From Pseudomonas phage vB_PaePA10145phi1_MKR2, in sequence record PV565008.1: a stretch of DNA of 64,000 nucleotides; one strand, 5' to 3'. Below, piece by piece: positions 10,490 through 10,793 of this stretch (positions are counted from its first letter, which is position 1; each line of letters starts with the position of its first letter). The position numbers and the translations under genes are program-made. Under the pieces are notes generated by a model, which made no database searches, was not told the DNA's origin, and saw nothing but the letters and a program-made list of their open reading frames with translations.

Positions 10490-10793
10490 TAATATCCATC
10501 CATCTCTCAGGAATGGATATTGTCAAATTGCCTGCTTGATCTCGAAAGAGTCAAGTAAATCCTCTCTAATTGCTGGGACATCTCAATGAGACAATCAGCA
10601 GCGAAGCTTTCCAGAAATGGATTGAACGTTCAACGACTATCCGGTTACGCGGAGTACACTCAAGCGAGTGGAAATGGGAGGGACCTGACCACCTAGGGTG
10701 AAGGTTAAGATATAGTCTGGTCTGCATGGTGACATGCAGCTGCCTGCAATACGAGAGGCGGGGTAAGCGTAGCGAACTTACCTGAACATAACG
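10490..10793 (+). ncRNA. group I self-splicing intron interrupting the RNAP beta gene (no internal ORF)
   Basis: A 304 nt insertion splits the HGNKG motif. The 5' exon ends in U (10489) and the insertion ends in G (10793). At 10707-10717 the element AAGATATAGTC matches the conserved J8/7-P7 segment of group I introns (cf. Tetrahymena AAGAUAUAGUCGGACC). Candidate P7 pairing is gacca(10686-90)/tggtc(10718-22). A downstream hairpin ctgcatg-GTGA-catgcag carries a GNRA tetraloop (P9-like). The downstream exon has no start codon and changes frame. Confidence 0.65.

Follow-up and report, generated by a model that had tools for sequence, protein, structure and literature searches.

A phiKZ-type group I intron without an open reading frame in the non-virion RNA polymerase gene of Pseudomonas phage vB_PaePA10145phi1_MKR2

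The intron between genes 71 and 73 of the Pseudomonas phage phiKZ, a prediction for which PMC10914365 cites Mesyanzhinov et al. 2002, lies in the gene for a beta-like subunit of the non-virion RNA polymerase (nvRNAP) that has gone by the name gp71-73 since Yakunina et al. 2015 (PMC4666361). We describe here the corresponding element in a 64,000-nucleotide stretch of DNA from Pseudomonas phage vB_PaePA10145phi1_MKR2 (PV565008.1), the whole of which is referred to below as the window. The element is already known: it is the published phiKZ intron, in the form without an open reading frame (ORF) that most sequenced phikzviruses carry. Gene, insertion point and exon junctions are common to the two phages; the phiKZ intron, however, is 1218 nt long and holds a 951-nt ORF (gp72; 316 aa, HNH/NUMOD4) in the loop of its 5' P1a hairpin, whereas the window intron measures 307 nt and its P1a loop 13 nt, and of the perfect 12-bp stem (AUAUCCAUCCAU/AUGGAUGGAUAU) that closes the gp72-holding loop in phiKZ the window has 10 bp left.

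The phage PhiPA3 has an intron at the same site (HGG^KGV) of its nvRNAP beta gene (L009 3051-3500, equal to HQ630627 55005-55454), which is likewise ORF-less and retains a remnant of a gp72-like C-terminus; it differs in its length of 450 nt and in a P5 extension of about 95 nt, the mark of a long-P5 class, and it is 61% identical to the window intron over shared columns. It scores 79 bits against the Rfam family RF00028, and the GenBank feature at this place is a beta-subunit '(fragment)' coding sequence (CDS); the features given there include no intron. A group I intron that carries an HNH endonuclease also divides a conserved catalytic motif in another beta-like RNA polymerase (RNAP) gene of nucleus-forming Pseudomonas jumbo phages, PhiPA3 gp210 and phiKZ gp179, but there the enzyme is the virion RNAP, the motif is a different one (interrupted after two Asp residues) and the endonuclease is functional and mediates interference competition (Birkholz et al. 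2024, PMC11620839). An intron is further described in gp273/274 of phage 201phi2-1.

The td intron of phage T4 (IA2) shows the same architecture as that of the window, with P1-P2, a P3-P9 core, P7.1/P7.2 and P9.1/P9.2, and likewise has an in-frame stop just inside the intron. Because of P7.1/P7.2, P9.1/P9.2 and the roughly 80% identity to td of the 84-nt J8/7-P7-P9 3' domain, we place the window intron as IA2-like. The td intron differs in its host gene, thymidylate synthase, and in its 5' half, which has no detectable DNA similarity to the window. The td endonuclease ORF (I-TevI, GIY-YIG) is located in P6.

Identity and structure of the intron

We consider it highly probable that a self-splicing group I intron of the phage IA2 type occupies 10487-10793. 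It would be the ORF-less allele of the phiKZ intron and would split the catalytic H-G-G-K-G motif of gp71-73 after its second Gly codon, directly before the codon for Lys. Rfam 15, run over all 64 kb of the window, gave a single match above gathering score, to RF00028 (Intron_gpI) at 10511-10739 on the plus strand, with 84.2 bits (gathering threshold 50 bits), an E value of 5.9e-20 and model positions 1-253 of 253 covered. This strongly positive covariance-model result supports the claim of a preliminary description, made from the sequence alone, that a group I intron divides the RNAP beta-like gene inside its HG(N/G)KG motif. As was also noted there, and as seen in both the sequence and the ORF list, the beta-like ORF (9293/9308-10492, 9293 being an alternative start) closes with ...KMTDFHGGN and an immediate stop (TAA), and the beta homology is taken up again from 10794, as KGVICKVMEDEDMP..., in a frame other than that of exon 1. 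The final codons of exon 1 are CAU GGU GGU (His-Gly-Gly), and the apparent C-terminal 'N' and stop of the annotated gp71 ORF arise because the reading runs into the intron up to the UAA at 10490-10492.

In the 269 nt that begin with the guide sequence and close with the terminal G, the phiKZ and window introns are 100% identical, with zero differences, and the earlier statement that phiKZ has an intron with a homing endonuclease at the analogous position proved right, the same intron with gp72 being found there. Inside the window intron the ORF list gives only ORFs of 43 and 53 aa, none of a meaningful size, in agreement with the earlier statement that it has no homing-endonuclease ORF. A mobile intron would encode such an ORF within itself, and the gp72 ORF of phiKZ is absent from the window; the window allele would be an immobile derivative of a mobile group I intron.

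The helices listed in Table 1 were assigned by combining the Rfam alignment, reading of the sequence and folds. The minimum free energy (MFE) fold of 10481-10799 has a z of -3.47, none of 100 shuffles being equally stable, and recovers all of the helices except the pseudoknot; an 11-nt 3' tail ends in G10793. A 33-nt insertion in the Rfam alignment, between P7 and the 3' strand of P3, falls at the position of P7.1/P7.2. Two elements singled out in the preliminary description are present, namely AAGATATAGTC at 10707-10717, resembling J8/7-P7 and forming the core motif in the Rfam alignment, and a GNRA-capped P9-like hairpin, found at 10722-10739 with a GUGA loop. The P7 proposed there, gacca (10687-10691) with tggtc (10718-10722), is rejected: 'gacca' belongs to P8, and the P7 that covaries is 10635-10640/10712-10717.

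Table 1. Coordinates of the intron, its ribozyme elements and the flanking exons in the window.
Feature	Position	Strand	Basis
Group I intron, 307 nt, IA2-like (phage td type), without endonuclease ORF	10487..10793	+	RF00028, homologues, PDB sequence, phiKZ core identity
P1	10484-10489 / 10527-10532	+	P1 search, MFE/centroid folds
P1a hairpin	10490-10499 / 10513-10522, loop 10500-10512	+	Folds, phiKZ comparison (gp72 site in phiKZ)
P2 hairpin, GAAA tetraloop	10533..10557	+	Local fold, compensatory change, position of the endonuclease gene stop
P3	10560-10566 / 10676-10682	+	Rfam alignment, pair counts, MFE fold
P4	10571-10576 / 10595-10600	+	Rfam alignment, pair counts, MFE fold
P5	10581-10584 / 10588-10591	+	Rfam alignment, pair counts (double changes), MFE fold
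P6/P6a, GAAA loop	10601-10629	+	Rfam alignment, pair counts (P6a double changes), MFE fold
P7, GACUAU/AUAGUC	10635-10640 / 10712-10717	+	Rfam alignment, covariation
P7.1	10640-10643 / 10650-10653	+	MFE fold
P7.2	10657-10661 / 10666-10670	+	Covariation, MFE fold
P8 hairpin, contains 'gacca'	10684..10704	+	Rfam alignment, C-G to U-A covariation at base
J8/7 (UUAAGAU) and P7 3' strand (AUAGUC), conserved core motif AAGAUAUAGUC	10705..10717 (J8/7 10705-10711)	+	Sequence, Rfam alignment, pair counts
P9, 7-bp hairpin, GUGA loop (CUGCAUG-GUGA-CAUGCAG)	10722..10739	+	Sequence, local folds
P9.1	10740..10761	+	Local folds of 12 introns
P9.2	10762..10782	+	Local folds of 12 introns
Terminal guanosine (omega-G), 3' splice site	10793	+	All related introns end in G before the homology-defined exon-2 codon
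In-frame UAA, 4 nt into intron	10490..10492	+	Sequence, translation
Exon 1, nvRNAP beta-like C-terminal half (phiKZ gp71 homologue)	9308..10486	+	ORF list, KTN4 annotation, 7OGP chain C identity
Exon 2 (phiKZ gp73 homologue), first codons AAG GGC GUC (Lys-Gly-Val)	10794..11717	+	ORF list, KTN4 annotation, conceptual splice, 7OGP

Pairs were counted in eight introns, from the window lineage and the L016 lineage, whose cores are 70-71% identical (45 pairs, 360 cells). Standard pairs occupy 95.0% of the 360 cells, against 33-43% when the 3' partners are slid by 1-3 columns, and the observed covariation score was reached by none of 500 shuffles; the slid control carries more weight here, as the eight introns are relatives and one of them supplied the structure. 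Both sides have changed in seven pairs, spread over P5, P6a, P7, P7.2 and P8, and P7 is paired throughout (100% in the 8 sequences), with U10638-A10714 becoming C-G in three of them. The MAFFT alignments misaligned P2 and P9.1/P9.2 between the lineages, and these helices were judged by independent local folding, in which the P2 and P9/P9.1/P9.2 hairpins come out the same in 12 related introns folded separately, from quite different helix sequences; P9.2, for instance, occurs as GGUAAG/CUUACC, GUAUCG/CGAUAC, GAUAG/CUAUC, GUAAAG/CUUUAC, GAUGAG/CUCGUC and GUGAAG/CUUCAC. The intron of the T2P lineage (L003) is 94% identical to that of the window, and the seven core positions at which T2P and FBPa36 (L025) differ from it are all structure-neutral: the P2 pair C10541-G10550 is U-A in T2P, with the U.G intermediate in FBPa36, the P9 loop GUGA becomes GCGA and so is still GNRA, G10762-C10782 becomes G.U, and the other differences are confined to loops or joining segments. 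These comparisons point to selection on the ribozyme that is both purifying and compensatory.

The endonuclease gene gp72 and the insertion sites of relatives

PHIKZ072 is treated as an intron-encoded homing endonuclease (PMC10914365, PMC12676376); its Pfam matches, to HNH_3 and NUMOD4, are borderline, both lying slightly under the gathering scores. At this locus the gene is found in only five records of the phage collection, from phiKZ (two), OMKO1, fMGyn-Pae01 and FBPa36 (80% identity), and the ORF-less intron is present at full length in about 45 GenBank records, which makes it the common allele. Were this form ancestral, phiKZ, OMKO1, fMGyn-Pae01 and FBPa36 would have gained the endonuclease later, through invasion of the P1a loop; the invasion of intron loops by free-standing endonuclease genes is known from phage introns, and the records that bear the homing endonuclease gene (HEG) are in the minority, 5 vs about 45. 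We nevertheless regard a late gain as unlikely. HEG-bearing alleles occur in both core-sequence sub-lineages, the phiKZ type and the T2P/FBPa36 type, and remnants of the gene persist in introns that lack it. T2P keeps AGGAGGTGAGATG (AGGAGG-N5-ATG), near-identical to the ribosome-binding site and start of the FBPa36 HEG (AGGAGATGAGATG), fused straight to the HEG 3' end. The window junction is different and shorter, CAGGA/ATGGATAT (here and below a slash marks the junction), and being unlike that of T2P it implies an independent deletion, which makes two. PhiPA3 (L009) retains about 100 nt ending in ...EDFNGWIFKEM and a stop, similar to the gp72 C-terminus ...LDGWIFSNC.

The ORF-less allele thus looks, from these remnants, like a deletion derivative. 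Since the gp72 ORF extends across the guide sequence and P2 as far as a stop in J2/3, ...WILSNCLLDLERVK with its stop is still 'encoded' in the window; deletion of gp72 would have left traces of its ribosome-binding site/start region together with its last ~13 codons, these doubling as guide and P2. Once without the endonuclease, the intron would no longer be able to home. The viability of phiKZ orf72 deletion mutants (PMC12676376) fits the dispensability of gp72, and predicted HNH endonucleases are named in the KTN4 genome paper as a point in which KTN4 noticeably differs from phiKZ.

Two further observations concern the phiKZ record. At L001 3001-3046, which corresponds to window 10513-10559, the last ~15 codons of gp72 and its stop overlap the 3' strand of P1a, the guide and P2, these nucleotides being doubly used, as coding sequence and as ribozyme structure. 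The phiKZ gene call PHIKZ072.1 (L001 3074-3184, approximately window 10586-10696; the window ORF is 10570-10701, plus strand) lies wholly inside the ribozyme core, from P5 to P8, and is therefore probably spurious.

The exon-2 protein, used as query against IMG/VR, gave 21 related loci, of which 11 are interrupted at the motif on translation, at either of two positions separated by 3 nt. In the loci scanned, Rfam places a group I intron directly upstream of the KGV/KSV codon. Together with the cases of gp179, gp210, gp273/274 and PhiPA3, this count contradicts the earlier view that introns are rare in phiKZ-like RNAP genes. Site A, CAY GGU GGU^AAR (HGG^K), is occupied in the window, T2P, PhiPA3, L013/14 and L022, and site B, CAC GGU^GGA AAA (HG^GK), in L011, L016 and L019-21/24. 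The ribozymes fall into two classes according to the P5 region between the P4 strands, which measures 15-26 nt or 94-101 nt, and each class is found at both sites. The window intron (site A) shares 70-71% identity with the L016 lineage (site B) but only 54-64% with the long-P5 class, within which the other site-A introns reach 56-64% and L011 (site B) 54%; L011 in turn is 77% identical to L013 (site A). The guides match the sites, being GCC or GCCACC at A and GCCG at B. These data would be compatible with occasional moves between the two tandem GGU triplets. From them we raise tentatively, and think rather unlikely, that the intron changed its position several times through reverse splicing into the adjacent GGU and not through endonuclease-driven homing; if true, this would be a natural case of ribozyme-guided transposition, and the ORF-less window allele would be potentially still mobile, not a dead end.

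The intron of the L016 lineage has no match in a named phage. Over the opening 18 nt of exon 2 (3498-3515 in both loci), the intron-bearing L016 and the intron-less L017 show 6 synonymous differences (GGAAAATCAGTAATCACA vs GGCAAGTCCGTCATAACG), and they are almost 100% identical for about 600 nt beyond, which looks like a short co-conversion tract or like target-site immunity changes beside the insertion site. The ORFs in the P1-loop position of L013 (2276-3073, 265 aa, no Pfam match) and of L020 (1996-3192, 398 aa, borderline HNH_3 match) differ, which suggests independent endonuclease acquisitions.

Splice junctions and expression of the divided gene

Four independent lines of evidence, namely PDB entry 7OGP with the spacing of the catalytic lysines, the intron-less homologues, the RNA structure and the guide of L013, lead to an intron of 10487-10793. 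In the RNA, exon GGU (10484-10486) and intron AAU(U) pair with (A)AUUGCC (10526-10532) in 7 contiguous bp, setting the canonical U.G wobble, U10486.G10530, exactly at the junction of exon 1 and intron, and this P1 is recovered by unconstrained MFE and centroid folds. The intron-less homologues, in 10 IMG/VR loci and 3 database proteins, are continuous as HGG/KGV or HGG/KSV, ...TDFHGGKGVVCK... and ...TDIHGGKSVITH... being examples among the uninterrupted IMG/VR loci. Chain C of 7OGP reads ...DFHGGKGVICKV, that is ...KMTDFHGG-KGVICKV, and the related intron L013, at the same insertion site, has the guide GCCACC, which is complementary to GGUGGU over its full length. The two conserved lysines of phiKZ are K386 and K394 according to the structure paper (PMC8287921), and their spacing of 8 equals that of K1065 and K1073 in E. 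coli beta (KMAGRHGNK). At the 3' end the last intron base is G in 13/13 of the related introns examined.

The preliminary description had set the intron at 10490-10793 (304 nt), with the junction GGN/KG, on the boundary rules of U10489 and G10793. G10793 stands, as the last intron base; U10489 does not, the exon ending at U10486 and the junction being GG/KG. A 5' splice site after U10489, with the product ...HGGNKGV... (junction GGTGGTAAT/AAGGGC, peptide MTDFHGGNK), would likewise fit the rule of U at -1 and preserve the reading frame, but we judge it highly improbable: U10489 lies opposite A10527, not G, so that no P1 with a U.G wobble can be constructed for it (best 3 bp), the extra Asn is absent from the intron-less homologues and is the one gap when 7OGP chain C and three other PDB entries are aligned end to end with that conceptual splice, and it would stretch the conserved lysine spacing from 8 residues to 9. 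An early alternative that joined exon 1 to 10486 with 10785 (HGG-NIT-KGV) falls away, no homologue having such a sequence and the 3' tail and terminal G aligning at 10793. Another guide candidate, auu[G]UCA at 10519-10525, is rejected, as it falls within the P1a stem and neither phiKZ nor T2P conserves it. The automatic P1 search was noisy in endonuclease-bearing introns (a wrong P3 anchor in L013, a wrong-side match in the L016 lineage), and these cases were settled by reading the sequences.

With the junctions at 10486 and 10794, excision restores the continuous conserved frame (...HGGKGV...), as in the intron-less homologues and 7OGP chain C. The conceptually ligated mRNA is CAU GGU GGU/AAG GGC GUC (protein ...DFHGG-KGVICKV), in DNA letters ...CATGGTGGT/AAGGGCGTC..., also written ...TTTCATGGTGGT/AAGGGCGTCATC..., and yields a 700-aa polypeptide reading ...KMTDFHGGKGVICKV.... 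By analogy with the established chemistry of the group I family, the guide GCC (10530-10532) would pair with exon GGU and set U10486.G10530 at the cleavage site, and exogenous guanosine held at P7 would attack after U10486; the terminal G10793 would then take the same site, and the released 3'-OH of exon 1 would attack after G10793, joining ...CAU GGU GGU to AAG GGC GUC... to give the single polypeptide. Translation of the unspliced RNA would stop at UAA 10490-10492. The intron would persist because the essential catalytic motif would survive its loss only if the deletion were exact to the base.

That splicing takes place in vivo, we infer from the protein, the ribozyme and the motif. In native nvRNAP, isolated from cells infected with phiKZ, mass spectrometry identified gp71-73 as a single polypeptide (PMC4666361), and the recombinant phiKZ enzyme, which has the HGGKGV junction, is active and has been solved by cryo-EM (PMC8287921). 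The ribozyme shows compensatory evolution, and exon ligation is needed to complete the catalytic motif, to which one of the two conserved lysines belongs. Some points weigh on the other side. An ONT-cappable-seq study of phiKZ reported that, in the conditions it used, it saw no sign of splicing at gp56, gp72 or gp179 (PMC10914365). The cryo-EM protein being recombinant, its junction may reflect the design of the construct and does not independently prove the natural one. P1 has only 3 exon bp and P10 only about 2 bp, and the direction of change, loss rather than gain of the HEG, is one that we infer from remnants.

Alternatively, the ribozyme might be inactive or weak, with the halves made as separate gp71-like and gp73-like polypeptides that assemble non-covalently, as at the other places where jumbo-phage RNAP genes are split; the two CDSs annotated in GenBank records, an ATG at 10815 that could initiate a gp73-like product and the long-read transcriptome study of phiKZ without spliced reads would all agree with this. 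We give it very little credence, given the one gp71-73 band of native phiKZ nvRNAP, whose ribozyme core is identical to that of the window, and the purifying and compensatory selection that the ribozyme appears to be under. The product from M10815 would, moreover, lack the invariant residues KGV(I/V)C that belong to the catalytic motif, and no promoter-like site was found on the plus strand in or after the intron, nor a terminator-like one within it.

Annotation of the gene and the homing cycle

The 2.4-kb gene region is 100% identical to that of KTN4, PA7, kmuB and many other Phikzvirus members (Pseudomonas phages). Both flanking CDSs are annotated in KTN4 as 'putative non-virion DNA-dependent RNA polymerase subunit', and their phiKZ counterparts are PHIKZ071 and PHIKZ073, with PHIKZ072 in between. 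The N-terminus of the exon-1 protein (9308-9331) reads MAELGKRE vs MSQLGRRE in 7OGP chain C, and there is one more Val/Ile difference further along; the rest of the spliced protein is identical to the phiKZ sequence.

The main value of the finding lies in annotation. Nearly all of the approximately 45 GenBank phikzvirus genomes with this allele list two separate 'hypothetical protein' or 'RNA polymerase' CDSs, which carry an artificial end, ...GGN and a stop, and an artificial Met start, the annotated exon-2 start at ATG 10815 being an artificial one. The essential nvRNAP beta-like subunit should instead be given as one joined CDS (9308..10486, 10794..11717), the catalytic motif of which is completed only by splicing, and antisense or transposon data on 'gp72' need to be read with the intron in mind. 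For the nucleus-forming jumbo phages, the locus shows stages of the homing cycle side by side, in alleles of a single site that contain the HEG, that have lost it (in at least three independent deletions) or that have no intron.

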